Assembly (NCBI GenBank): GCA_041658075.1
Contig: JBBAAW010000001.1
Location: 24,778-88,777, forward strand
Direction of reading: 5' to 3'
DNA from: Patescibacteria group bacterium
GTDB lineage: Bacteria; Patescibacteriota; WWE3; UBA101185; UBA10185
Length of the DNA stretch: 64,000 nucleotides
Position numbers and translations under genes: made by a program. Shown one piece after another: positions 2,401 through 31,848 of the stretch (its first letter is position 1; each line of letters begins with the position of its first letter). The notes below the pieces were generated by a model, which had not been told where the DNA came from, did no database searches, and worked only from the letters and a program-made list of their open reading frames with translations.

Positions 2401-3516
2401 CTATATCAAGCTAACCGACCTGTACAGGTTATTAAGTAATCTACTTTTATCGTTTTCCTTTGCCCAATTAAGCGCTTTATCTCTCATGTCAGAATAAAGG
2501 TTGGTGTCCGACATTAATCTTTCCAGACCTTCCGCAAGCTCTTTGACATTTTCGCAAAGTATTAACAAGCCTCTCTCGTAAGCCTCAACAGCTGTTGATA
2601 TATTTCTGTTGCACACAACGGGCAAACCCGATGCAGCGTATTCTCGAATTTTTAAAGAGTCGGCGTATTTTTCAAATGATTTTACGTTTTCGTACCAGGC
2701 TACACCGATATAAGATTTTGACATTATTTTTATGTTAGTTTGATAGTCAACAAGACCGTGTAATATTACTATATTTTCTAAATTACGCCGGCTTGCTTTT
2801 CCAATAACATTTAATTTTATTGACGGAAACTTTTCCTTTAACAACGACGTTAAATCCAGCAACATGTCGATTTCGGTGTCACTAATGTTAGATTTTGTAT
2901 AAACTAACTCGTAACGATCTTTCTCTTTTGGGTCTATACGCGCGGCATGTTCATAATCAGGGGAGTTTGGCAAGAATACTGCTCTATCCGGATTTTTAAC
3001 GCGTGGCTGTACAATTTCCCGCATGTTTTTGCTTACATATGTTACAAAAGATGCGTGAGCAATGGAGAAATAGTAAATTTTTCTATAGAAAGCATCAAGC
3101 AATTTTATTTCAAATCGACATTCTGAAAAATCTACGGCATGAAACTGCACAGGCGTTTTTCTCAGGAGACTAACGACATAAGCTGACACAAAGTTGAGTG
3201 GATCTACGGCAATAATTAGGTCAATTTTCCCATACGAGAGAGTTTTAAAAATATTAAACACTATTTCGATTGGCCACCTGATTACGCCGGAAAATGGGAT
3301 TTTGTACTCCCGGATTTGTTCTCCGTTTTTTATTCTTGAGCTGTGTACTCCGGCAAGCGGATGCTCAATAAATATTACTTCAAATCCTGTATTCTCGAGA
3401 AAGGAGGTAACATAGTCTATTCCTCCTGGTTTGATTCCCGTTGCCGTGAATATTCTGTGTACAAGGATAACTACTTTTTTTCTTGTTGTTGGTGTTGTCA
3501 TAATGTCTTGTTCCAA
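2401..3516 (-). CDS. Glycosyltransferase family 1 (GT4)
   Basis: C-terminal GT1 domain (KIREYAASGLPVVCNRN). Confidence 0.7.
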   Translation of the reverse strand: MEQDIMTTPTTRKKVVILVHRIFTATGIKPGGIDYVTSFLENTGFEVIFIEHPLAGVHSSRIKNGEQIREYKIPFSGVIRWPIEIVFNIFKTLSYGKIDLIIAVDPLNFVSAYVVSLLRKTPVQFHAVDFSECRFEIKLLDAFYRKIYYFSIAHASFVTYVSKNMREIVQPRVKNPDRAVFLPNSPDYEHAARIDPKEKDRYELVYTKSNISDTEIDMLLDLTSLLKEKFPSIKLNVIGKASRRNLENIVILHGLVDYQTNIKIMSKSYIGVAWYENVKSFEKYADSLKIREYAASGLPVVCNRNISTAVEAYERGLLILCENVKELAEGLERLMSDTNLYSDMRDKALNWAKENDKSRLLNNLYRSVSLI

Positions 3517-13288: not shown

Positions 13289-14032
13289 ATGGACGCGTAT
13301 CTGCGTGCACTTGAGCAACAGTTGGAGCCGCTGTACCACATTCCCCATGTCGTTGGGGGGCACGAGATCAGTCATGTGAGGATGATGTTGGCGCGAGCTA
13401 AAGGGGTGCTTGAGGCGATCAGCCGATACTACCCCGGCCTCGACCCGGCAGACGATGGAACTTTCACAGAGCTTCTTGCCGCTATTTGGTGGCACAACGT
13501 CGACCGGGTTCGGGAGTGGAAAGTAGATGTACAGAAAGCGGGGGGTGACGAGCCTTATGTGCTGATGCAGCTCGCTGACAGTCCTTTCGAAAACGACGCG
13601 CGTGCGCGCATCGCGTACGCGGTGGCAAACCACTCTCAGAGGGAGTGTCAAATCGGTGAACATCCCTGGTTGCTGGTTGCCTTGATGGACCTGGACAAGA
13701 TGGTCAGGCTATTCCCGCTCAATGTCATCGAAGGGGCACAACACCAGCTCGAGGATAACCCGATATACGATCCGGAACCGGAACACCTCTTCGACTACAA
13801 GAAGGCACGCCGAAGCTTATGGCGCGCATTCATGTGGAACTTGGAGTGGGTGCCCATGCTTTCTTGTGACGAGGTGCGTGCGTTGATTGAGAAAGCACAC
13901 TTCCGTGCGTTCATCGACTTCCTGCGGGCTCTGGGGGCTGACATCGCGGAGCGTGAGGGAGTGCCGAACGGAGTCGAAGGGCAGATTGAACTAGCTCTGG
14001 GTGAATATTACCAGGAGTTTGCCTGCTCGTGA
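13289..14032 (+). CDS. Hypothetical protein encoded in a GC-rich (~58%) island
   Basis: 247-aa ORF with strong promoter and SD. Compositionally foreign. No family recognised (His-rich N-terminus HVVGGHEISH). Confidence 0.5.
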   Translation: MDAYLRALEQQLEPLYHIPHVVGGHEISHVRMMLARAKGVLEAISRYYPGLDPADDGTFTELLAAIWWHNVDRVREWKVDVQKAGGDEPYVLMQLADSPFENDARARIAYAVANHSQRECQIGEHPWLLVALMDLDKMVRLFPLNVIEGAQHQLEDNPIYDPEPEHLFDYKKARRSLWRAFMWNLEWVPMLSCDEVRALIEKAHFRAFIDFLRALGADIAEREGVPNGVEGQIELALGEYYQEFACS

Positions 14033-14145: not shown

Positions 14146-17100
14146 GTGAGGATAAAATCGCCTGATAGCAAGAACATGACAAAGGTGCCCGGTAAAATTC
14201 TCATCTTTTTTCAAGCCTACAAAAGTTTCTTATCCAGACATCCCGTTGTTTCATTAATACTAAATATCCTCTGGCCGCTTCTTATCTTTCTGTGGGTTGT
14301 TTTTATCAACCGTTTTCCACAGGGCTACATTTATGTTAGTGGAGATTTTGCTCAGCCAATAAACATAGAAAACATTTTCAAAAACCTTTTTTACACTTGG
14401 GGTAATGGTATATCAGCTCCCAGCGAGGGAGGATTCTTCTCCTGGTTTGCGGCTTCTCCGTATTATTTTATCTTCTATCTTCTGCCCCACAAACTGGGTC
14501 TTAACGACACTAATATTTTGTCGTACGTACTTTTTCTTTTCTTATCACTTTCCTACTTTTCCTTCTTGTTGGCCTTAAAACTTATCTTCAAAGAAAAACT
14601 TACTGTTTTTACCAGAGTTTTTTCGCTTATCTATTCAATAAACCTCACAACTATATATTTCTACACTTACACGTGGGGTTTTTCACACCAAGTTTTTTTA
14701 TATATAACCCTTCCTTTATTGGGTGCGGTATTCTACCGTTACATTTCTAAACCTTCCCTTAATAATACGTTAGCCTTTCTTGTCTTGCTCTTTTTGTCTA
14801 TCCCCGGTTTTACTAATGTAGCGTTTTTCGTTTCTTTATGTCTATTTTTTTGTCTATTTTTGGCTTTTTCTATTCTGTTAAAAGTCGTTGTTATAAATAG
14901 GAAACTTGTTTTATCATTATTAATTCTTTCGATACTTTCTCTGCTGACTCTATCAGTTTGGGTTGCGCCTACTTACATGGCTTTACGGGGCGAATTATCG
15001 AGTTTGGCCGGTGGAATGTTTAACTTTAATCTATGGCTCAGAACCCAGTCGGCGGATATCTTGTCCATCCTGATAGGTTTACCAGGTTATGGAGGGTTCT
15101 TTCCGTTTTCTCACAACCGTTGGTTTCTTTATCTGTTTCCGTTTATTCCAATACTTCTACTTGTAGTGTTTTTAATAAAGTCAAAGAATGAACCCGCCGT
15201 TTTGCGTAAAAGACTGTCTTTAGTCTTGCTTTCAATCTGTGTTATTTTTATGTTTCTAATAAAAAAAGGGCAAGGTCCATTTGGCGAACTCACTTTAAAG
15301 GTTTTTTCCGTTATTCCTCTTTTATCTATATTTAGAAGCTACGAAAAAATCGCTCTTTTTATGCCTTTTTTGATGCTTACTGCCATTTACGGTCTCATAC
15401 CCTTAAAATTTACCGCTAACAAATATATCTACGTTGTTTTAGTGGCGACTTTGTTTGCAGGAGCTCCATTTTTAATGGGTGGCATTCAAACTAAATACAG
15501 CATAACTTTGGGCGACGATCCTACAAAGGACTACACAACTTCAAAGTATTCTGGTTTAGTTAAAATTCCTTCCGACTACTATAAAATCGCCGATATTGTG
15601 AATGCAGATACTCAGGATTCAAAGGTTCAGGATCTGCCATTCAGTGTGTTGAACACACCTGCGTGGGTAAATTACATAAAATGGAAATTAATTGGATTTA
15701 ACGTTACACAGAATCTTTTGGTAAAGCCCACCATTGGACAAAATGCCTCACAGCTAAACTTATTTAACTGGTCGCCCACTGCAGAATTTAATGGGACTCG
15801 TTTAAATCCAGAGTGGTATATAAAACTGCTTTCATACTTTAACGTTTCCCACCTTATTTACCATAAAGGTGTGGCCGATCAGTTTATCTCTCAGTCACTG
15901 CCTAAAGTTCAGGAATTAGAAAAGGAGGGTTTAATATCTAATCTATATGATGGAGAGTCTGCCTCTCTTTACAAGGTGGACGATAAATATGTTCTGCCTA
16001 GTTTTTACGTTCCCAAAGAAACATTGTTTGTGTATGACGAATTAAGATTTTTTCCGTACCTACTCCTTGTTCCGGATTACGACAAACAAACAAACTACCT
16101 TTTTAAAGAGGTTAACAAACCGACTTTGGATGAACAAAATACGAAGACAGTTGTAATATTGGAGGAACTCATCTCTTTGGATACTCTTATGGATAACACA
16201 TGGAGTCCAGCGTGGGTATGGCCCCCACAGAATGACTCCAAGGATCAAGTTGACATTCAATTGCTAAATATTGTACGGGTGGCGTTTGAGATGAAGTCGC
16301 AAAACCTATACCATAACCAACCACTGCAGGGAGAAATAGCCTTCGCACTGCAAGGATTAAAGTTGGCCGTGGAAGAAGAACTAAAGACGCGTACCCAGGT
16401 TACAGAACGTAATAAAATTATCGAAAAAGTTCTTAAGAATCTTATAATGGTTAATGTTGAGTATGGCGACCAGGGAGATGTCCACAACTTTTTTCTTTCT
16501 CTTCTGTATAATTTTGACTCTTGGGCGTTAGTAAAAGGCTGCATGTTCAGCTGCTACCCTATGGAAATTCCGGAGACCGGGGATTACGAAATCCTTGTTG
16601 AAAACTTAGACGATGCCGCCAAAAACGCAAGAATCTATTTTAAAGATAGAAACACGGGCGCTACTTTGTCCGGAGAAGCTACTCAAAACCTAAGTAAATC
16701 GAATAACGACTATGTAAATTACGGAGTTATATCCTTTACTAAGGGTAACTCTTTGTTTTTAGATTTTTACCATCGGTCGCAGATATTTCTCAAGATGTCG
16801 GAGTGGAAAAAGGAGACTGTGGACGGAAAAAACAGTATAAGCAGAGAGCTGTTAAATTTAGAACCAAATCGGAGATATCAGGTTTCCATTAAATACAATG
16901 GAGATTTAGATTCAGTTTCTTTTACGATTGTTGAGGATAGCTCTGTTCCAAATGCATCGGTACTACAGTTGGGAGAGATCTTAAAAAAGACGGGGCAGGA
17001 CCCATTCTTCTTTGCAGGAAATGTCGGTGGAACAAGCAAGCTTTATCTTTACAACAAGGACGGAAAGGATATTAACTCTTTAGATATTGGCGATATAAGG

Positions 17101-17523
17101 GTGGAGGAGATCTTTAGTCCCAAAATAATTCTGAAACAAACTAAAACATCAATCGGCACATCTCCGGAGAGTCCGGAAATACAAATAAAAAAGGTTAATC
17201 CAACCAAATACCTTATTTTAGTTAGCAAAGCAACCGGTCCGTATTCTCTGGTATTTAGTGAAAGTTTTCATAGTCAATGGAAGCTGTATCTTAAGGGAAA
17301 AGAGATAGCTAAGGATAATCATTTTGTGGCAAACGGCTACGCTAACTACTGGGTAATCAACCCCCAAGATACGGAGAATCTAAGTTCGTATGATCTTGTA
17401 GTGGAATACAGACCCCAAATTCTATTTTATTATGGCGCAATAATTTCCCTTTCGACTTTGTTTCTTCTCTTTTTAGTACTATGTCTAAGAAAAATTATCC
17501 AAAAAGGAAAAACTTATGAGTAA
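14146..17523 (+). CDS. Giant integral membrane protein (1125 aa), GT-C/AftD-like architecture: ~11 N-terminal TM helices, a large extracytoplasmic domain, a C-terminal TM anchor
   Basis: Hydrophobic N-terminal 450 aa, soluble middle part, C-terminal TM (IISLSTLFLLFLVLCL). The only long plus-strand gene inside the minus-strand cluster. Confidence 0.5.
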   Translation: MRIKSPDSKNMTKVPGKILIFFQAYKSFLSRHPVVSLILNILWPLLIFLWVVFINRFPQGYIYVSGDFAQPINIENIFKNLFYTWGNGISAPSEGGFFSWFAASPYYFIFYLLPHKLGLNDTNILSYVLFLFLSLSYFSFLLALKLIFKEKLTVFTRVFSLIYSINLTTIYFYTYTWGFSHQVFLYITLPLLGAVFYRYISKPSLNNTLAFLVLLFLSIPGFTNVAFFVSLCLFFCLFLAFSILLKVVVINRKLVLSLLILSILSLLTLSVWVAPTYMALRGELSSLAGGMFNFNLWLRTQSADILSILIGLPGYGGFFPFSHNRWFLYLFPFIPILLLVVFLIKSKNEPAVLRKRLSLVLLSICVIFMFLIKKGQGPFGELTLKVFSVIPLLSIFRSYEKIALFMPFLMLTAIYGLIPLKFTANKYIYVVLVATLFAGAPFLMGGIQTKYSITLGDDPTKDYTTSKYSGLVKIPSDYYKIADIVNADTQDSKVQDLPFSVLNTPAWVNYIKWKLIGFNVTQNLLVKPTIGQNASQLNLFNWSPTAEFNGTRLNPEWYIKLLSYFNVSHLIYHKGVADQFISQSLPKVQELEKEGLISNLYDGESASLYKVDDKYVLPSFYVPKETLFVYDELRFFPYLLLVPDYDKQTNYLFKEVNKPTLDEQNTKTVVILEELISLDTLMDNTWSPAWVWPPQNDSKDQVDIQLLNIVRVAFEMKSQNLYHNQPLQGEIAFALQGLKLAVEEELKTRTQVTERNKIIEKVLKNLIMVNVEYGDQGDVHNFFLSLLYNFDSWALVKGCMFSCYPMEIPETGDYEILVENLDDAAKNARIYFKDRNTGATLSGEATQNLSKSNNDYVNYGVISFTKGNSLFLDFYHRSQIFLKMSEWKKETVDGKNSISRELLNLEPNRRYQVSIKYNGDLDSVSFTIVEDSSVPNASVLQLGEILKKTGQDPFFFAGNVGGTSKLYLYNKDGKDINSLDIGDIRVEEIFSPKIILKQTKTSIGTSPESPEIQIKKVNPTKYLILVSKATGPYSLVFSESFHSQWKLYLKGKEIAKDNHFVANGYANYWVINPQDTENLSSYDLVVEYRPQILFYYGAIISLSTLFLLFLVLCLRKIIQKGKTYE

Positions 17524-17990: not shown

Positions 17991-19097
17991 TCACTGCTTC
18001 CATCCTTTCCTGCTGGCTTCTGCCTTTTTAAACAGTCCGGCGATGGTTCCTAACGCATACATCCATAAAGTAATCTCGCATGCTAGTGGATGAAAAAACC
18101 AAGCAGGATCCCGTTTTTTAGTGTAGCCTTTTACAGCCTCATACAATAAGGGAAAAACCGTTAAACAACTTAGTAAGAACTTTATCATTCCGAACTTATT
18201 CATTACTGCAGATACAAACAAAGAAATTACCCCCTGCACCTTCTCTGTAATTACAGCTTTTCCCGTTCCTAACTCATCTTTAGCCTCCCATTCAAAATCC
18301 CGATTTTTAGCAACAAATTTAGAATATAAAAGATCACTAATTCGTCTTCGTTGTTTCCTGGCAAATTTTTTGATATCACTTTCACAAAAAGTATGGATAA
18401 TTCCATTTTTTACTTTAATAAAAGTTACGGCGCCGTTTTTCTTTAGGGATTTTGCAACGATGTCTATATCAAACAAGTAGTCTCCTTTTGCGGCTTCCTT
18501 TAAAAAACCGGTTCTGAAAACAGTTCCGTTCGCACCGATCGTTGGTAGACCCCTTTTGTCAAATTTCACCACAAGGTACCCCCCTTTATCAACTTCTTCA
18601 TGCGGAACTTCAGTCCACCTTCCTGTAAGTAGGTTCATTCGGTCATAATCTCCCAAAAAGTGTACAAAGGGATCGTTCATTCCTATCAAGGCGCAATATC
18701 TGGCAATAAAACCATCCTGGGCGCGCCAGGTGTATTCCCAAGGCTCGCTTCCAACGGCTTCAGGTTCCTTTATTAAGGGATCTATCATATCCCTCATCCA
18801 ATTTGTATCAGGCAAAATGTTATCCGAATCTATTAAGACAACAAAATCCCCGGTAGCGGCCCGTAAGGCAGCCATTTTCCCCGCTTCCCCCGTTTTTAGT
18901 TTATTTTCCACGACTTTAGCCCCGTATTTAAATGCAATATCTAAGGTTTTGTCTTTTGAGCCCCCGTCGGCAACGATAATCTCTATTTTCTCTTTTGGAT
19001 AATTTTGAATGGAGATAGATTTAAGGCACAATTCAAGAACCGATGCGGCGTTTAGTGTAGGAATTAAAACAGAAACTTTAGGTTTAGAATCGCTCAT
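17991..19097 (-). CDS. Glycosyltransferase family 2 with C-terminal TM helices
   Basis: VSVLIPTLNAA...DGGSKDKT...DSDN GT-A motifs. Confidence 0.75.
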   Translation of the reverse strand: MSDSKPKVSVLIPTLNAASVLELCLKSISIQNYPKEKIEIIVADGGSKDKTLDIAFKYGAKVVENKLKTGEAGKMAALRAATGDFVVLIDSDNILPDTNWMRDMIDPLIKEPEAVGSEPWEYTWRAQDGFIARYCALIGMNDPFVHFLGDYDRMNLLTGRWTEVPHEEVDKGGYLVVKFDKRGLPTIGANGTVFRTGFLKEAAKGDYLFDIDIVAKSLKKNGAVTFIKVKNGIIHTFCESDIKKFARKQRRRISDLLYSKFVAKNRDFEWEAKDELGTGKAVITEKVQGVISLFVSAVMNKFGMIKFLLSCLTVFPLLYEAVKGYTKKRDPAWFFHPLACEITLWMYALGTIAGLFKKAEASRKGWKQ

Positions 19098-20679
19098 TTT
19101 TAGTGGGAACCAGGTGGCTAAACATACTTCTCCCCGCGTCGATCCAAAACTTAGGTGACAGCATATTCACCTTGGTTTGGTTTTTATCAAAGTCGAGCAA
19201 ATGTCCCAAGAGTCGTTTAGCACTCATAGCATAAAACTTAACATCATCTACTTTTCTTATAGACAGAATTTTGCGGACAAAATACTGCGGCGTAAAAAAG
19301 CTCGAATACAGCTCCTGCGTCATTTCAAAAAGCCTGGCCTCCGCAAAAGGAATCTTCATAACCGGTTTTCTCATGTCAAACTCCCCGTAATCTTTAGGAT
19401 CCACGGCAAACAAGCCTTTTTCCACGCATTCTTTATACAAAGGTGTTCCCGGATAGGGGATAACAATAGTGGCCTGCATGGTGTCAACGTAACCCTTTTT
19501 AAACAAACTCTTGGCTAGTGCAATAGTGTTTTGTGCCATTTCTTCCGTTTCCCATGGATAGCCCAGCATTACGGTAATATGTGGCTCCAAGCCGGCCTTT
19601 TTAGCCATTCGCACGCCTTCTTCTATTTGTTCCACTTTTAGACCTTTGTCCAGTTTGTCCAGCGTTTCCTGATTTGCGCTCTCCATGCCGTATAAAATAA
19701 AGCGGAAGTTAGCCTTACCCATTAAGTCGTAATAGTCTTGCGACAGGGCATTAAGGCGCATATTACAGCTAAAAACCACTTTTTTGTTATAACCGGACTC
19801 TATGAGAAGCTCGCAAAACTTTTTTAGGGGTGGACCAACAAAGAGCGTTCCCGCGTCGTCAAAAATTTCTTTGACTTTATACTTGTCGACAACATATTTA
19901 ACCTCCGCAAAGAGTCGTTCCGGTGAGAACCGGCGATAGGTTCCTTGCGGATTTAGAGTGTGATCCCAAACGCAAAAAGTGCAGCGACCCCACCAGCAAT
20001 CTCTGCCGGAATACATGTAGGTGGCGGGAGTGTATTTGTAGTTGCCGTTGGTGTAGGCGTAAAGCTCCCATTTGGTAAGATCGCGATCGACAAAGGGAAG
20101 CTCGTCCAGATTATGCTTTTGGACTAGTGGGCCGGATACCCAAAAAGCGCCTTCTTCTTTTGCCATATCGCCAAGTTTTATCTTAGTGTCACCTTTTCTG
20201 CCCCAAATCCCGCCCGGCAAAACCGTGCCTTTGGTAATGGAGTCGGCAAGGTCGCTAAGCATAAAGTCATAGTCGCCACCGGTAAGTATATAGTCAACCT
20301 GGCAGTTGTTTAGCGTTTCTTTAGGATCTTGTGTTACATGGTCGCCAACCATAGCAATTAACATGTTGGGAAGTTTTTCTTTAAGTTCGTTCACGATTTT
20401 CCAGTGTTGTTTTGCCACAGGAGCCTTGGTTTCCAGCATTAATAAGTCAGGCGACTCTTTTTGAAGTTCATCGAGCCATTGGACGTAAGTTTGTTTTGAA
20501 GCAATGCCGTCCATCCAAACCACGTCATACCCACGCTCTTTTGCCAGCGACGCAGCATAAGCCGGAACCATGGGGTAAATGTAAGTTGGGGCGTTAAAAT
20601 ATTGAAATTGACGATTTTGAGTAAGAAGCGGTGTTCCTTTTGGCGACTCTATAGGAGGATATCCTATGGCGATTTTCAT
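19084..20679 (-). CDS. Class-B radical SAM enzyme: N-terminal cobalamin-binding-like domain + radical SAM core
   Basis: MVGDHVTQDP...YILTGGDYDF B12-domain-like region. Cys cluster CWWGRCTFC (Cx4Cx2C). Start set at MKIAIGYPP; the longer ORF start at 20847 runs into GC-rich foreign DNA. Confidence 0.55.
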   Translation of the reverse strand: MKIAIGYPPIESPKGTPLLTQNRQFQYFNAPTYIYPMVPAYAASLAKERGYDVVWMDGIASKQTYVQWLDELQKESPDLLMLETKAPVAKQHWKIVNELKEKLPNMLIAMVGDHVTQDPKETLNNCQVDYILTGGDYDFMLSDLADSITKGTVLPGGIWGRKGDTKIKLGDMAKEEGAFWVSGPLVQKHNLDELPFVDRDLTKWELYAYTNGNYKYTPATYMYSGRDCWWGRCTFCVWDHTLNPQGTYRRFSPERLFAEVKYVVDKYKVKEIFDDAGTLFVGPPLKKFCELLIESGYNKKVVFSCNMRLNALSQDYYDLMGKANFRFILYGMESANQETLDKLDKGLKVEQIEEGVRMAKKAGLEPHITVMLGYPWETEEMAQNTIALAKSLFKKGYVDTMQATIVIPYPGTPLYKECVEKGLFAVDPKDYGEFDMRKPVMKIPFAEARLFEMTQELYSSFFTPQYFVRKILSIRKVDDVKFYAMSAKRLLGHLLDFDKNQTKVNMLSPKFWIDAGRSMFSHLVPTKNERF

Positions 20680-20764
20680 GAAATCGATTATAGCAGATTT
20701 GAAATAGGGGTTTGGTACCACTCCGCAGACGCGACAAATTATTTTGTCCGCGGAGTGGCCCGTT

Positions 20765-21502
20765 TCAGCCCATGATCTCGGCGATCGATTGCCGAAGCTG
20801 CGAAAGGTATCGCACAGCTTGGGCACGCGTGCCAAAGGTTGGAGCAACTTCGAGCACGATTGACACCTGGGTCTTTGTCTGTGTTGCCAGCAGGCGCAGC
20901 ATGTCCTGTAACTCGCCTTTAGTTTGTCCTGCCAGCAAACTTGAGATCTCCGGCCCCACTGGGTGGACGTGGATCAGGGCGATTTGGTCTTTCCACTTTT
21001 CAAGTAGTCTCTTCCATTGGAACGGGGAGGGGTCCCCGTTTCTGTAGGGTCGGCGCGTGTGCCAGGTGTCCCAACACAAACTGGCAAGTCCGGTGGTAGG
21101 CAGTCCGCCCTCGGGATGCAGCTCATAGACCGATTGTCTCTCTCTGGAGTCGTGAGAGACGTGCAAGGCATTCTGGAAACATCGGCCGAAGATCTGCGGA
21201 TCCATGGGGTCCCTGCCGAATACTACCCAATCGATGGGCAGTGGGTGATCTTCTCCAGCCCGCCCTGTAACCCGTTGTACAACCTTCCAAAGGGAGCCGT
21301 AATTCCAAGCTCCTTCCCAAGCAATTACTCCTCTGTTAGGTAGCCGTCTTACGGAATCCATGCTCCATCCCCGCAAAGGGAGGAGCTGAAGTCCGTTGAA
21401 TCCGGCATCAACGGCCATCTGGTAGGCCCTGACCGGCCCACCCGATCCCAGACTCCATGGAACCAACGACGCGACGCTCACATCGAACCTCCTCGTACCC
21501 AT
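20765..21502 (-). CDS. Xylose-isomerase-like TIM-barrel (sugar phosphate isomerase/epimerase family) protein in a GC-rich (~57%) island
   Basis: LCWDTWH (cf. LDxGH metal-site motif of PF01261). Strong SD AAGGAGAG 6 nt before ATG (MGTRR). Extended -10 TGTTATAAT upstream. Confidence 0.5.
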   Translation of the reverse strand: MGTRRFDVSVASLVPWSLGSGGPVRAYQMAVDAGFNGLQLLPLRGWSMDSVRRLPNRGVIAWEGAWNYGSLWKVVQRVTGRAGEDHPLPIDWVVFGRDPMDPQIFGRCFQNALHVSHDSRERQSVYELHPEGGLPTTGLASLCWDTWHTRRPYRNGDPSPFQWKRLLEKWKDQIALIHVHPVGPEISSLLAGQTKGELQDMLRLLATQTKTQVSIVLEVAPTFGTRAQAVRYLSQLRQSIAEIMG

Positions 21503-21572
21503 GCTGTGCTCTCCTTTCATTCTTCCCACTAATTCCGCCGTGCGTGTTTGCTGATAATATTATAACAAATAT

Positions 21573-21992
21573 TCAGGTTATATGCGTTGTGAGTATAAAA
21601 GTAACTATTCCAACTTCTTGATTCGCAAACAGTTTAATACGATCGTTTGAAAATGACCACAACCATTTTATTCCCCAACCGGTTCCGATGCTATCTAAGA
21701 TAAAATGTGAACATACGCATGTAATAAACATTAAGGCCAATTTGTAGTCAGAAGCTAAAAGTATTAACAGGGAAAGAGATATATAGAGCAAGGAGTAGTG
21801 TGTAATTTCTCTGTGAAACCCGTGCTCTTTACCCCCAAGCCTTTTCCGTTGAAGTAATTCAATAAGGATATCCACATCGGGCAGATAGTTAAAGAAGATA
21901 ATAATCAGTAAAAACGGCAGAGTTAGTTTAAAGCCAAAAATAGAAGAAAATAGTGTGGAAAATATGAAGGCAACTCCGAGATGAGTGAACAC
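21573..21992 (-). CDS. DUF457/YdjM-like membrane-bound metal-dependent hydrolase
   Basis: N-terminal MFTHLG, conserved His residues (HREITH, CSHFILD), 4 hydrophobic segments. Confidence 0.45.
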   Translation of the reverse strand: MFTHLGVAFIFSTLFSSIFGFKLTLPFLLIIIFFNYLPDVDILIELLQRKRLGGKEHGFHREITHYSLLYISLSLLILLASDYKLALMFITCVCSHFILDSIGTGWGIKWLWSFSNDRIKLFANQEVGIVTFILTTHIT

Positions 21993-22043
21993 ACTTAGGA
22001 TTATATCAATAATCAGCCGGTATAACGCACAGGCCTATAGAAT

Positions 22044-22072
22044 TTTACTATTGGCGTGAGGTTTTATATAAT
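22044..22072 (+). promoter_or_regulatory. Sigma70-type promoter TTTACT-17nt-TATAAT upstream of the small GC-rich ORF
   Basis: Perfect -10 TATAAT. Downstream SD GAGGAGGTG and a GTG start at 22114. Confidence 0.45.
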
Positions 22073-22113
22073 AAGTACACAAGCTCGATTAACTCTTGCC
22101 GAGGAGGTGTATC

Positions 22114-22314
22114 GTGGAGATTGCGAGGCTTTCGTGGTCATATGTTATCGACTGTACTTTCGTGCTTTTCGCGGTCTGGTATTTGCGGAGGTTCTTTGTT
22201 GCGGTCTCTGAGAGCGAGGCCGGAATTTATTGGAACGGACCGGCAGTGGTTGGGATTGTGGGCACGATGATGTGGATTCCAATTATCTGCACAATCATCG
22301 ACTGGTTCTTATGA
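22114..22314 (+). CDS. Small (66-aa) two-TM membrane protein in a GC-rich patch
   Basis: Strong SD GAGGAGGTG 5 nt before GTG. Hydrophobic helices. ~58% GC. Confidence 0.4.
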   Translation: MEIARLSWSYVIDCTFVLFAVWYLRRFFVAVSESEAGIYWNGPAVVGIVGTMMWIPIICTIIDWFL

Positions 22315-22407
22315 GCCCCTGCTCCGAGATGTCGAAAAGGCGTCAGACAAGACTGAAGGGTGCAACCGAAGCTGGCTCAGCGGCCAACTATCGAATGTAC
22401 CCTTCTT

Positions 22408-23418
22408 TCAACCGCCTATATAATTTCCGGATTTTGCGTCGACCCCGCGGAGTTGAAGTTTTGGTTTTATTAATAACCCGTGGATAAAATTTAGTCCATA
22501 TACTACGTGCGTCAAAAAGATTCCCAAGCCTGTGTAAAGTGCTAGCTTTAAATGTCGCTCGACCATAAAAACTTTAAATATTTCTAAAGTCAACAAAGCT
22601 AAGTATGCTGTGACGCAAACTCCGTAAAAATACCAAAGCAATGGAATGACGACGCAGATAAAAGGTCCGAGAAATAAACCTAATACAAAGGCTGACGGAG
22701 CAAAGTAAGAAGGGAGTCGCGAAGTTTCCGGAAAGATCCTTGCAAACTGTCCACGATGTCTTCCGTAACGGGAAATTTGTTTTAGATGCGGTATAAAAAC
22801 ATTTCGACGATGGTGATAGACCACGGGTTTGGGGCTGTACAAAAAGGGTCTGCCGTAGGTTTTTACAAGATCTAGGCAAAGTTTGGTGTCTTCCCCGGGC
22901 CAAAAGTCTGCTAGGAACCCTCCAACCTTTTCAAATGCTTCCTTTCTAACAAAGAGATTGACTGATGGGTAGTCGACTATCTGTTTTCCCCGTAACGGCA
23001 CGTGTCTATATTTGGTCCCTGCACTCGTCAGCCATGATTCTAGAATCTTTCCCGAACACTTTTCTAGAAGTTTGGCATCTGGTGGCGTTATAGCAGGACC
23101 GCCTAAAGCGTAAACCTGGGGATCGCTAAATATAGTTGCCGCCTCGTTCAGCCAGTTTGGGGTTGGGTAAGCATCGTCGTCCAGAAAAACCAGCACGTCT
23201 CCGCTTGCCATGCATGCGCTAAAGTTTCTTTTTTCTCCTGGTGCCGTCTTTCCCGGGCAGATGAGTGAAAAGCGACTGTCATTGAACTCGTACTGCTCCT
23301 TAGAATCTGTAGTAATAAGAACCTCAAAGTTCTGGTAGTTAAGTTTCTTTAGGTTGGTAATACTTTCTAGCAGAAAGTTGTTAATAGCTCTAATAGTGAT
23401 AATTATGGAAAACTTCAT
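22408..23418 (-). CDS. Glycosyltransferase family 2 with C-terminal TM helices
   Basis: FSIIITIRA...FEVLITTD...[11 protein letters not shown] motifs. Confidence 0.75.
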
Positions 23419-29432: not shown

Positions 29433-30992
29433 TTAAAGTTTTTTATAGATCCTCCAAAATTCTAGTCCATTGATATACATTCCGTCATCCTGGACAAATT
29501 TAAACTTACCCTCCAAAACGTTTTGTGACATCTCCTCATTCGGTCCTAAGATAATCAGATCGTACTTGGAAGTTCCGATTTCCCTAATGTCAAACAATTT
29601 TGAATTTGGATAAATCATGGACATAGGTTTCTTATCTATAAAACCCAGCCCAACATCATTACCGTATTTTTTTACTAGTCGACTTTTTAATTCTGAAACT
29701 CCAATCCCAAAAGGTTTTTGTCCAATGAGTTTGTTGGCGTTTTCTGCCGAGCCAAAAAGCGGATTAGTATAAGTAAAGTAATAAGGGTAAAGCTTGATTA
29801 ACGGGTACAAGGCGCCGATTCCCGTAACGAGAACCAGCGATAAATACAGTGCGCCTTTATAATATCGGTCCTTTAGCTCTGTAAATGTTTGGGTAATTAC
29901 AATCGCCGATACTATTCCCAGCAGAGGAAAAAGCGGAACCATGTAGCGGTCGATCTTTTTTGATGCTGCCGTCATTCCTAAAAAATAGGCTAGATAAAAC
30001 ATTGTAAGGTAAAGCAAAAACACCTTGTCCACCCTCTGGTATCTGTGATAGTCTCTAACTATTTGAAAAATAAAGAACCCGATCCCCAACCAAATGAGTG
30101 GGGAGGTTTTTAACGCTAAAACTAAAGGATAGAAGCTCAGACCTGCTGTATCCGTTGTATCTCCCATAACAACCTGCTCGTGCCCGCGCCGTGTTCCTAT
30201 TCGTAGGCCCTCATTATAAATGTCGCTCAAAACAAATTTGGGATTGACCCATAAAGCCGGGAAGAGAATAAATATTGTGGCAATGGAGGAGAGTAACAAC
30301 GCGCTCAGATACACCATCGGCCATTTTCTATCTAAGCGGTTTCTTAATGTCGCTACGACTAAAAAAGCCAATATAAATCCCAGCGATAATAGACCCACGC
30401 TCTTAGTGAGAAACGCCAAGCCTGCAGAAACCCCGCAAAAAATCACGTTGGTGAGTGACCAACGCATATAACATTTATATCCATAAGTTAAAGATAAGAT
30501 AACGAAGAGGGTGAGCAGTACATCCATGTGTAAGATTCGCGAGTTTCCTAAGAAAAAGGGTTCAAAGGTAAAAATTGATACGGCTAAGAGTGATTTTTTA
30601 AGTCCTAAAACTTCTTTTAGTGCCAAGATTAGAACTATCGAAAGAGCCAACTGCGTTAACACAAGTGAATACTTAGCGATCTGATGAAGTTGTAAAAAAT
30701 TATCTTGATTATAGACTCTAATTCCAGGATCGATTTGTCTGGCAATTTCTATGGGGATTCCCATTATCCACATCAAAGTTACTCCTGGGTGATAGTGCTG
30801 ATAGGTTTTTAGAAAATTGCCACTTTTTAACCCTACAATAAACTGCTCAGATCTAAAATGCCAATTTACCGCATCGGGATTTATTTCGTCATAACCTAAG
30901 AAAGGGATTCTCGTTATGAGAAAAGCCAAAGAAAACGTTATTACAGCCAGAATTTTTTTAGTCTTTATTGAAAGCATATAAAACGCCGCCAA
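29433..30992 (-). CDS. GT-C fold membrane glycosyltransferase (PMT_2/ArnT-like), paralog B
   Basis: GYDEINPDA and YHPGVTLMW motifs. Multi-TM. C-terminal soluble part. Confidence 0.5.
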   Translation of the reverse strand: MAAFYMLSIKTKKILAVITFSLAFLITRIPFLGYDEINPDAVNWHFRSEQFIVGLKSGNFLKTYQHYHPGVTLMWIMGIPIEIARQIDPGIRVYNQDNFLQLHQIAKYSLVLTQLALSIVLILALKEVLGLKKSLLAVSIFTFEPFFLGNSRILHMDVLLTLFVILSLTYGYKCYMRWSLTNVIFCGVSAGLAFLTKSVGLLSLGFILAFLVVATLRNRLDRKWPMVYLSALLLSSIATIFILFPALWVNPKFVLSDIYNEGLRIGTRRGHEQVVMGDTTDTAGLSFYPLVLALKTSPLIWLGIGFFIFQIVRDYHRYQRVDKVFLLYLTMFYLAYFLGMTAASKKIDRYMVPLFPLLGIVSAIVITQTFTELKDRYYKGALYLSLVLVTGIGALYPLIKLYPYYFTYTNPLFGSAENANKLIGQKPFGIGVSELKSRLVKKYGNDVGLGFIDKKPMSMIYPNSKLFDIREIGTSKYDLIILGPNEEMSQNVLEGKFKFVQDDGMYINGLEFWRIYKKL

Positions 30993-31848
30993 CTAGGCTT
31001 ACTCCAAGTCGCAAAAGATGAAACAAAACCGAGGCACTTAACGCAATATCAGCAGTAAGTCCCGGAATGGGTTGAGCAATAAGTTGAATATACAAAGCGT
31101 CTTGTACGCCAATTCCGTTTATGGAAGGAATAAAGAAACTGGCTAATATAATTAATGGGAAAATAAACAGAGCATAAAATGGAGAAAAATGTGCGCCAAC
31201 CGAAGCGAAGACAAAGTACTGAGCAAAAATTGAGCAAAGTTGAACGATAAAGGAGGTTAGAAAGGCAATAAACAGGACTTTGGGTGACTTTCTGTAAGCA
31301 GAAATTGAGTCGTAAATTTTTTGAAGTTTCTTTATTTTTTTTGATGCAAAACCTAAGCAAATGTAACCAATGGGGATGCCTGCAAGTACAGCCAAGAAGA
31401 TCAATACCCCCCACAGTCCCAACAGTTTAATAAGTGCTGCCGACGATATGCAGACAAGCGCCGCCACTCCAGTAAAGCGTTCCATAAATGTAGCGGTAAA
31501 AGCGTCTGTAGTGCTTCCAAGCTTCTTTCCCAGTTTTACAACCTTGTACACATCTCCACCTACGCTGGTGGGCATAAAATTGTTGAAGAACGAGCCTATA
31601 AAGTAAAGTGACGTAAGATACTTTACGCTTACGTGACTAGTGTCAGAATGAATTAAAAGTTTTTTCCACCGCACGGAACTTACAAAATAGTTAAGTACAA
31701 TTAGTCCCACAATAAGTGGGATAAACCACGGATTCATCATGGAAATATTTTGGATCAGCTGTTTTTTGTCGACCTTAAAAAGAATTACCGCCAATAATAT
31801 GATCGACACCGCGATTTTTAGAACGGTCTTTTTAGATATTTTTGCCAT
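30958..31848 (-). CDS. UPF0104 / lysylphosphatidylglycerol-synthase-TM-region family membrane protein (flippase-like)
   Basis: SSVRWKKLL and TSVGGDVYK motifs characteristic of PF03706. Confidence 0.7.
   Translation of the reverse strand: MAKISKKTVLKIAVSIILLAVILFKVDKKQLIQNISMMNPWFIPLIVGLIVLNYFVSSVRWKKLLIHSDTSHVSVKYLTSLYFIGSFFNNFMPTSVGGDVYKVVKLGKKLGSTTDAFTATFMERFTGVAALVCISSAALIKLLGLWGVLIFLAVLAGIPIGYICLGFASKKIKKLQKIYDSISAYRKSPKVLFIAFLTSFIVQLCSIFAQYFVFASVGAHFSPFYALFIFPLIILASFFIPSINGIGVQDALYIQLIAQPIPGLTADIALSASVLFHLLRLGVSLVGGVLYAFNKD

Follow-up and report, generated by a model that had tools for sequence, protein, structure and literature searches.

Introduction

HpnJ and AprD4 are the closest characterised relatives of a radical S-adenosylmethionine (SAM) enzyme encoded in a large cell-surface glycan locus on the minus strand of a Patescibacteria genome, of which we analysed a window of 64,000 nt (the whole stretch of DNA; all coordinates below are window positions). 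HpnJ was proposed to contract a glucosamine ring, and the cobalamin-dependent ring-contracting enzyme OxsB has a Cx4Cx2C cluster motif, as does the enzyme studied here (PMC9204698). AprD4, a sugar diol dehydratase, does not bind cobalamin (PMC12931638). Replacement-type flexible genomic islands are also known from surface-glycan loci, with the Alteromonas O-antigen/glycosylation islands and the SAR11 hypervariable region (HVR) as examples (PMC3542563, PMC3448164). We report here that the gene of this radical SAM enzyme (rSAM) is preceded by a strain-variable replacement cassette, which contains a GC-rich gene for a predicted TIM-barrel protein (the barrel gene) and which is a peculiarity missed by the first-pass annotation of this DNA.

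The rSAM protein has the same two-domain layout as HpnJ (TIGR03471), an N-terminal Rossmann domain and a radical SAM barrel, and in both loci a GT2 glycosyltransferase gene stands beside the radical SAM gene with an LPG-synthase-type gene near (hpnIJK of Mycetohabitans). The HpnJ motif is however the canonical Cx3Cx2C (CRSRCTFC), whereas that of rSAM is Cx4Cx2C, and the rSAM family is, as far as seen, confined to Patescibacteria, at 70-89% identity. Homologues of hpnI and hpnK and hopanoid genes were all absent from the locus; an HpnI-like glycosyltransferase was looked for as a partner of rSAM among the GT2 genes of the locus and none was found, the neighbouring GT2 proteins being not HpnI-like. 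AprD4, which acts on a sugar, shows that the architecture of the rSAM protein can be cobalamin-free (PMC12931638). The barrel protein shares with the xylose-isomerase-like superfamily (D-allulose/D-tagatose 3-epimerase, IolE/IolI, 3-keto-glucoside lyases/epimerases, PA2260) the pattern E...E...D-x-x-H...H...E at successive strand ends, and is likewise a single-domain protein of ~245 aa, but it has no significant PF01261 or NCBIfam match and its family is small. The cassette resembles the replacement islands in being sharp-edged, in lying at the same position of a glycan cluster, in its coexisting versions and in its atypical composition. It differs from them in size (1.56 kb and essentially one enzyme gene, not tens of kilobases) and in its variants, which are homologous mosaic alleles of one gene and not different gene sets. 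Replacement islands are usually AT-richer than the genome, whereas this cassette is GC-richer and stands in an ultra-small Patescibacteria genome. With a classical acquired island it shares the atypical composition, but not the mobility signatures, the tRNA target or the absence from relatives.

Results

A strain-variable cassette lies between near-identical flanks

The boundaries of the cassette were set by comparison of the window with contig L003, of which copies from three assemblies are available (Table 1). At 4-fold degenerate sites the two sequences are 100% identical in the flanking GT2 gene and 98% identical in the 5' part of rSAM, against 54% in the barrel gene. The divergence between strains starts right after the TGTTATAAT box, the extended -10 element of the barrel gene, and stops ~27 nt before the barrel stop codon. 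The two barrel proteins are 67% identical, with a synonymous divergence (dS) of 1.57 and a nonsynonymous divergence (dN) of 0.24, that is a dN/dS of 0.15, from which we conclude that the alleles are old, functional and kept by purifying selection, and not hypermutated. Over all comparisons of barrel alleles, dN/dS was 0.15-0.19 and dS 1.0-2.8. Two further alleles, on contigs L010 and L011, both come from sample SRR22387966 and are 73% identical to each other in protein; compared with the window, the flanks are 96% and the barrel gene 66% identical in L010, the flanks 90% and the gene 64% in L011. We found also that the alleles are mosaic, the window being closest to L003 at codon-alignment positions 181-570 by sliding-window identity but nearer L010 and L011 than L003 at positions 601-690. 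With near-identical flanks, diverged content and coexisting variants, we read the cassette as a small replacement-type variable island of a glycan locus.

Three other kinds of element were considered for this segment and rejected. A diversity-generating retroelement, or hypermutation, is at odds with the absence of any gene repeat within 12.5-23.5 kb, with dN/dS values of 0.15-0.19 and with a divergence that extends across the whole coding sequence. For a mobile element, no direct or inverted repeats bounding the cassette were found, no mobility genes were seen among the barrel-gene neighbours scanned, the open reading frames (ORFs) listed between ~12.3 and 28 kb include no integrase-like ones, and no tRNA gene lies closer than 33 kb. 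As to a phage gene or defence system, neither PADLOC nor PHROGs gave a match for the three cassette genes or for the other GC-rich island of the window (island 1, below), and no relatives of the barrel gene were found in the viral contigs of IMG/VR.

Table 1. Positions of the cassette, its segments, and the genes and signals around it in the window.
Feature	Position	Strand	Basis or identity to L003
Strain-variable replacement cassette, 1.56 kb	~20792..22350		comparison with contig L003
Flank, GT2 side	23880-22350		99.8-100% identical
Stretch of the small divergent ORF	22350-22090		36-54% identical
ydjM stretch	22090-21690		~72-94% per 50-nt bin, mostly ~80%
Internal block between ydjM and barrel segments	21690-21591		94-100% (100% over 21591-21640)
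Barrel gene segment	21560-20792		52-86% per bin, mean ~66%
Flank, rSAM side	20790-19946		96-100% identical
Barrel gene, GC-rich (57% GC), 245-aa TIM-barrel protein, predicted metal-dependent	20765..21502	-	homologue alignment, profile searches
Extended -10 box TGTTATAAT of barrel gene	21559..21567	-	sequence; invariant in window, L003, L010, L011
Shine-Dalgarno AAAGGAGAG, 6 nt before ATG 21502	21509..21517	-	sequence
GC-rich hairpin, 41 nt, 13-bp core stem, no U tract	20718..20758	-	RNAfold, locus comparison
Extended -10 box TGCTATAAT of rSAM, ending 7 nt before ATG	20687..20695	-	sequence
Spurious 56-codon N-terminal extension of rSAM ORF (listed ORF 19084-20847)	20680..20847	-	ORF list starts at first TTG after a stop
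rSAM gene, 531 aa, N-terminal Rossmann (cobalamin-binding-type) domain and radical SAM barrel	19084..20679	-	Pfam, NCBIfam, AlphaFold/Foldseek
Cluster motif CWWGRCTFC (C228, C233, C236), Cx4Cx2C variant	19972..19998	-	homologue alignment
GT2 glycosyltransferase, 368 aa	17991..19097	-	ORF list, Pfam
ydjM (DUF457) family membrane protein gene, 139 aa	21573..21992	-	PF04307
Small hydrophobic ORF, 72 aa, divergently transcribed	22096..22314	+	ORF list
GT2 glycosyltransferase, 336 aa, conserved flank of cassette	22408..23418	-	Pfam
Island-1 orphan gene, 247 aa, 56.6% GC, 0.67 GC at third codon positions	13289..14032	+	ORF list

The slot upstream of rSAM in related genomes

The same slot was recovered well outside the close relatives of the window. 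L001, an 819-kb contig from JGI, shares with window positions 31848-19108 a colinear run of eleven genes (63-88% protein identity), and a barrel gene stands in the slot between the 336-aa GT2 gene and rSAM, being the most diverged of these genes (46-47% identity); ydjM is absent there. Contig L027 has a 243-aa copy of the barrel family in the slot and L024 a very diverged copy of 280 aa on the opposite strand. Barrel gene and rSAM are thus adjacent and co-oriented in the window and in L001, L003, L010, L011 and L027. In L028 (4861-5479), and likewise in L029 and L030, where rSAM is 89% identical, a HepT/MNT toxin-antitoxin pair and unrelated genes replace the GT2 gene and the cassette, so the region upstream of rSAM appears to be a general landing place for accessory genes. 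The rSAM family and the barrel family are each mostly found without the other (>5340 members against 315 cluster representatives). Because of this mostly separate occurrence, and of the separate promoters described below, the functional pairing of the two genes is weak.

Each gene has its own promoter and a hairpin lies between them

The extended -10 box and the Shine-Dalgarno sequence that the first-pass annotation had assigned to the barrel gene are both present, and at the Shine-Dalgarno site GGAAGGAGA is kept in L003, L010 and L011. Before rSAM, a TG(C/T)TA(C/T)AAT box occurs at equal distance in every locus examined (L001, L024, L027 and L028); since it sits 7 nt before the start codon in all of them, the rSAM mRNA would be near-leaderless. 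The hairpin lies directly 3' of the barrel stop codon and is present in all loci with a barrel gene co-oriented upstream of rSAM. It is kept in L001 (10743-10786) and in L027 (2235-2275), with a compensatory C-G to T-A change in both, although synonymous sites have reached saturation between these genomes. It is absent in L024, where the barrel gene is inverted, and in L028, where it is missing; for this reason a role as regulatory element of rSAM was rejected and the hairpin is attributed to the 3' end of the cassette, where it could act to terminate transcription, to stabilise the mRNA or to delimit recombination.

The barrel protein belongs to a small, undescribed family

The ORF listed for the barrel gene has 254 aa (20765-21529), and homologue alignment together with the Shine-Dalgarno sequence places the likely start at ATG 21502. 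The protein had no match in Pfam, NCBIfam, PADLOC, PHROGs or PDB sequences, and none to PF01261 (AP_endonuc_2) even at E values up to 10. Among 10 sampled relatives, 8 were without a Pfam hit and 2 had a sub-threshold hit to AP_endonuc_2 (14 bits vs a cutoff of 31.1). A word-based search of 5.8 billion proteins returned 11 homologues only, and an exhaustive profile search 315 cluster representatives (50% clustering). In an alignment of 98 sequences the residues E63, W66, E127, D145, H148, H178 and E218 are near-invariant, and E127, D145 (with H148 in D-x-x-H), H178 and E218, invariant or conserved in at least 90%, lie at predicted strand ends. Profile search of PDB sequences gave sub-threshold matches only, the best being MJ1311, endonuclease IV and Lmo2234, and the profile alignments pair the metal residues of the barrel protein with the DIGH/DTCH, IHVH and IE motifs of MJ1311 and endonuclease IV. 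Structure-based sequence identity to superfamily members is 8-17%. Because these best matches belong to the xylose-isomerase-like superfamily and align the conserved motifs, the xylose-isomerase-like TIM barrel proposed by the first-pass annotation is right at the level of fold, with a predicted single-metal E-D-H-E site. The barrel family is an undescribed one within the xylose-isomerase-like / AP-endonuclease-2 superfamily. All barrel-family loci with usable flanks are in low-GC, Patescibacteria-like genomes, and distant relatives adjoin murB/murA, GT2 or femAB genes, with no rSAM.

The barrel gene is GC-richer than its host

The window has a GC content of ~0.40, with two stretches of ~0.8 kb at 55-58%, at 13.3-14.1 kb (island 1) and at 20.7-21.55 kb. 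The ~57% GC island described earlier at 20.70-21.55 kb is borne out by a 200-nt profile, which gave 0.545-0.585 within 20700-21499 and 0.505 at 21400-21599. GC content at third codon positions (GC3) exceeds 0.6 in 2 of the 47 long ORFs, the barrel gene (0.62) and the island-1 gene (0.67), the rest being at 0.32-0.48. From its amino acids and host codon usage the barrel gene would be expected at 0.44, an estimated ~6 binomial standard deviations lower, and its codons are non-host (TTC 86% vs 17%, CTG 35% vs 12%), so a native codon usage was not found. About 10 of its 17 excess GC points come from amino-acid composition and ~7 from codon choice; the protein is richer in G, R, P and W, with R much more frequent than K. 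Translational selection as the main cause of the high GC3 was rejected, since G-ending and C-ending codons are both enriched, the amino acids are shifted and the conserved rSAM gene uses TTT at 89%. At gathering thresholds Rfam finds two distant tRNAs only in the whole window, and a permissive scan of 20500-22500 found nothing, so the GC-rich stretches are not known RNA genes; structured RNA genes were rejected also on the clear coding signal (dN/dS 0.15).

A GC3 excess of +0.06 to +0.19 was measured in 11 of 12 barrel-family loci, in hosts with a coding GC3 of 0.22-0.52. Gene and host have 0.62 and 0.40 in the window, 0.69 and 0.51 in L001, and 0.46 and 0.25-0.32 in L006, L017, L022 and L023. 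When the 155 retrieved family proteins are ranked by how GC-like their amino acids are, the window and L001 alleles both come within the top ten. The island-1 gene had no relatives in Pfam, NCBIfam or PDB sequences and a single homologue among the 5.8 billion proteins. This homologue (L012, 8001-8585) has 56% GC and a GC3 of 0.71 in a genome of 40% GC, where it occupies a roughly syntenic position within a glycan locus. In L008, a low-GC contig with a barrel-family member, the ORF-free, GC-rich patch at 2700-3090 is made up of four tRNA genes and is ordinary.

The rSAM protein has a predicted class-B architecture and a conserved Cx4Cx2C motif

The rSAM protein scored 67.6 bits against Pfam Radical_SAM (PF04055, cutoff 29.5) and 29.1 bits (E = 9.8e-7), under the cutoff of 32.1, against B12-binding (PF02310), to which most of its homologues have a precomputed match; by profile search the B12-domain signal of the rSAM protein is sub-threshold. 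The best NCBIfam models were HpnJ and BchE, with alignments that span residues ~33 to ~470 and both domains. With 170.1 bits against a curated cutoff of 577.6 for the HpnJ model the protein is not an HpnJ member, and it is 31% identical to the bona fide HpnJ of Mycetohabitans over 407 residues in both domains. In Foldseek searches, an AlphaFold model (predicted local distance difference test score, pLDDT, of 78) matched AprD4, TsrM, MgmA, OxsB, TokK and CysS over ~470-610 alignment columns, AprD4 being the best match. Because the model matches such enzymes across both domains, we take the predicted class-B (cobalamin-domain) architecture to be real. The use of cobalamin by rSAM cannot be asserted, since AprD4, its nearest structure, binds none. 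No cobalamin-ligand sequence motif is known to define class B radical SAM enzymes.

Aligned with CPGNCTFC, the canonical motif in PDB 9ccb, the cluster motif is longer by one inserted residue. The protein database holds >5340 homologues of rSAM, and the best 120 were examined for identity, start and motif: they are 70-89% identical to rSAM, all 120 have CW[WY]xxC[TV]FC, and the organism names attached to about a dozen of them are Patescibacteria, WWE3 or Saccharimonadales. The first-pass annotation had called a class-B radical SAM protein with a non-canonical CWWGRCTFC cluster, embedded among glycosyltransferases, and all of this agrees with the two-domain model matches, with the Cx4Cx2C motif in 120/120 homologues and with the GT2 genes found on both sides of the rSAM/barrel region by Pfam and further profile scans. 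It had also taken the N-terminal 56 aa of the listed ORF for translated foreign DNA at an insertion junction. All homologues examined begin with MKIAIGYPP, including a 531-aa database entry of 100% identity, so the true start is the ATG at 20679; the 56 codons are indeed not real coding, but they are an artefact of ORF listing and mark no junction. The DNA they span holds the promoter of rSAM and the hairpin as well as, in a different reading frame, the barrel gene's 3' end. We treat the rSAM family as a probable core, highly conserved Patescibacteria family of the glycan pathway. In a separate comparison with L001, 4-fold identity was 0.51 in rSAM and 0.34-0.40 in its neighbours, so that the synonymous sites of rSAM are less diverged. 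A literature search for this rSAM family, or for GC-rich variable genes in Patescibacteria, found nothing.

Discussion

We consider it somewhat probable that a core rSAM gene is accompanied here by an upstream strain-variable cassette, with an exchangeable sugar-acting barrel enzyme that was imported as a GC-rich gene. That rSAM is the core enzyme and the barrel protein an exchangeable accessory one is indicated by the separate promoters, the hairpin between the genes, their differing phyletic spread and the neighbourhoods of the distant barrel relatives. Since rSAM is related to HpnJ, for which ring contraction is proposed, and similar to the sugar diol dehydratase AprD4, it would most likely use radical chemistry to rearrange or otherwise modify a sugar that is carried on a lipid- or glycan-bound substrate. 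The barrel enzyme might isomerise, epimerise or dehydrate a (keto)sugar intermediate. Its alleles would be swapped by homologous recombination via the conserved promoter and hairpin flanks, and differing alleles could lead to strain-specific surface glycans, a diversity that phage or host pressure would keep. The GC-richness would reflect a history outside the mutational regime of the present host, most likely an import from GC-richer unsampled relatives.

Several points weigh against this explanation. The window-type allele is known from one assembly only, and because the comparison contigs are short (~1-4 kb), the statement that the strains are of the same species rests on ~2.4 kb of near-identical flank. 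A sugar-modifying role is suggested by fold, metal-ligand pattern and neighbourhood only. A GC-rich donor context was seen in none of ~15 independent barrel-family loci for which at least part of the flanks was available (several further contigs being duplicates), and the gene is GC-richer than its host in all but one of them, which weakens the case for a purely imported origin.

The import is best weighed against the possibility that the GC-richness was made in place, by selection for GC or by biased gene conversion, in which a cassette that is a recombination hot spot between diverged alleles undergoes GC-biased repair of heteroduplex mismatches; either would hold the cassette 15-17 GC points (GC3 ~0.2) above the genome, its function being as proposed above. 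Such an origin, possible but unlikely in our judgement, would fit a GC excess that tracks host GC3 across loci, alleles that are mosaic with no GC-rich donor seen, a GC-rich stretch that coincides with the variable one, and an unrelated island-1 gene that is alike in two genomes. It is opposed by the third-position changes among four close alleles, which when polarised by parsimony run from G/C to A/T at ~3-4 to 1 on 3 of 4 branches, opposite to a GC-biased equilibrium, although parsimony at saturated sites is itself biased toward this very direction. Because they run mainly this way, these changes suggest that the barrel gene is decaying from a GC-richer past. The ydjM gene, moreover, is inside the variable segment yet not GC-rich, and the amino-acid shift (R far above K) would need a long-acting force; we know of no documented case of biased gene conversion in Patescibacteria. 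That a gene-sized recombination hot spot holds single accessory genes (here the barrel gene and, 7 kb away, the unrelated island-1 orphan) GC-rich and hypervariable, through GC-biased conversion or a targeted process in place and not through import, seems rather improbable to us. We favour import from an unsampled GC-richer pool over a GC-biased process in place.

The first-pass annotation had read the region as a single acquired island that brought in a sugar isomerase/epimerase working with a B12-dependent rSAM to make a C-methylated or epimerised sugar. Its observation was confirmed and its interpretation is partly supported: the composition and codon usage of the barrel gene are indeed foreign, barrel gene and rSAM are adjacent and co-oriented in six loci, and both types of protein can act on sugars. 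A one-off insertion is nevertheless improbable, as the slot and its gene persist in genomes so far apart that synonymous divergence is saturated and the eleven colinear genes are at 63-88% identity, the gene is GC-rich there too, and mobility genes and bounding repeats are lacking; comparison with related loci, from which the island was expected to be missing, found a barrel gene in the same slot in L001, L024 and L027. The pairing of the two enzymes for an unusual sugar is weakened by the promoter proper to rSAM and the hairpin between the genes, by thousands (>5340) of rSAM against 315 barrel representatives, by the toxin-antitoxin pair that takes the place in L028-L030, by the inverted barrel gene of L024 and by distant barrel relatives that are not beside an rSAM. 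C-methylation had been raised as a possibility; neither it nor the use of B12 can be assumed, as HpnJ and AprD4 are not methylases and AprD4 is cobalamin-free. Other functions have less in their favour. A stress, DNA-repair or conflict module, in which an endonuclease-IV-like nuclease would act with YdjM apart from glycan synthesis, recalls that the YdjM family is known from the SOS regulon of E. coli, and is very improbable given that H117 and H180, the extra histidines a trinuclear site would need, are not conserved throughout the family, that PADLOC and PHROGs gave nothing, that L001 lacks ydjM and L003 has it in a decaying state, and that the neighbourhoods of the barrel family are envelope-related. 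We give next to no credence to a CbiR-like cobamide-remodelling phosphodiesterase tailoring scavenged cobamides for the neighbouring rSAM. CbiR belongs to the same fold superfamily as the barrel protein, the barrel gene adjoins a cobalamin-domain enzyme, and the CbiR model (NF041277) stood alone among NCBIfam models in matching two or more family members, but its 4 hits among 98 sequences all have E values of at least 0.025 and that of the window protein (E = 0.038) has 13.5 bits, a noise-level score against the 105-bit cutoff, on which the link was dropped. Most rSAM loci are moreover without a barrel gene, its relatives lie beside murB, GT2 or femAB, and strain hypervariability would be unexpected for a cofactor-salvage enzyme. 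Least credible is an assembly chimera or contaminant in a low-GC contig: the window-type allele is in one contig only and strain-variable regions are prone to mis-assembly, but promoter, GC-rich barrel gene, hairpin and rSAM were assembled together independently (JGI, ENA, NCBI, Logan) from different samples, and the junction sequences are conserved.

The preferred explanation, a core rSAM with an exchangeable barrel enzyme, bears on several matters. Small symbiotic genomes too keep a strain-variable slot in a glycan locus, and here the barrel alleles are diverged as between genera, which bears on phage and host recognition in episymbionts. The barrel family adds an unnamed family, without a Pfam or NCBIfam model, to the xylose-isomerase-like superfamily. 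The GC excess, present in almost every host and in two unrelated genes of the locus, is a clean puzzle on the evolution of composition, and these genes would be lost from any metagenome binning or annotation pipeline that filters out segments of odd composition. A GC-biased process in place, if true, would be unusually sharp for bacteria, at gene resolution and tied to glycan diversification. The conserved Cx4Cx2C rSAM family, found in thousands of genomes, is a target for learning the surface chemistry of Patescibacteria, and this family and the GC excess are the parts most worth follow-up.

Other genes of the cassette and of the locus

The ydjM gene is real, with 40.5 bits against PF04307 (cutoff 29) over profile positions 4-126 of 176; it had been described as a DUF457 gene that follows the barrel gene, and it lies in fact upstream with respect to transcription. 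The L003 copy (~1770-2295) carries a frameshift, and the window copy lacks, by internal deletion, ~50 codons present in L011 (1-490), so that from its sequence ydjM appears truncated or decaying. The small hydrophobic ORF falls where the cassette is most diverged, in a stretch of 50-53% GC, and has a promoter-like site on the + strand at 22044-22072. Its counterpart in L003 (1557-1763, - strand) encodes 68 aa and has only the motif (A/S)(V/I)WY(L/I)RRF in common with it.

On the far side of the cassette, the gene of the 336-aa GT2 and its L003 counterpart agree at 100% of amino acids and of 4-fold sites; with L001 the protein identity is 70%. On the other side of rSAM, the start of the 368-aa GT2 gene overlaps the rSAM stop by 14 nt, with an identical overlap in L024 and L026, and this start/stop overlap suggests that the GT2 gene may be translationally coupled to rSAM. 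The wider locus has a short-chain dehydrogenase/reductase (SDR) like UDP-sugar dehydratases/decarboxylases, a polyprenyl-phosphate-sugar-type GT2, a flippase, PMT-type transferases and an LPG-synthase-type membrane protein. The gene of this last type, LPG_synthase_TM (30958-31848), is 84% identical to its L001 counterpart. In the Mycetohabitans megaplasmid (L031, 1614-6259), hpnI-hpnJ-hpnK are followed by a gene for an LPG-synthase-domain membrane protein, and an LPG-synthase-type gene in both loci may reflect a shared theme of lipid-linked sugar modification. Between island 1 and the 368-aa GT2 gene, positions 14146-17523 (+ strand) encode a polytopic membrane protein of 1125 aa matched by no Pfam or NCBIfam model, counterparts of which, of ~1000-1080 aa, adjoin glycan genes in L012 and L026.

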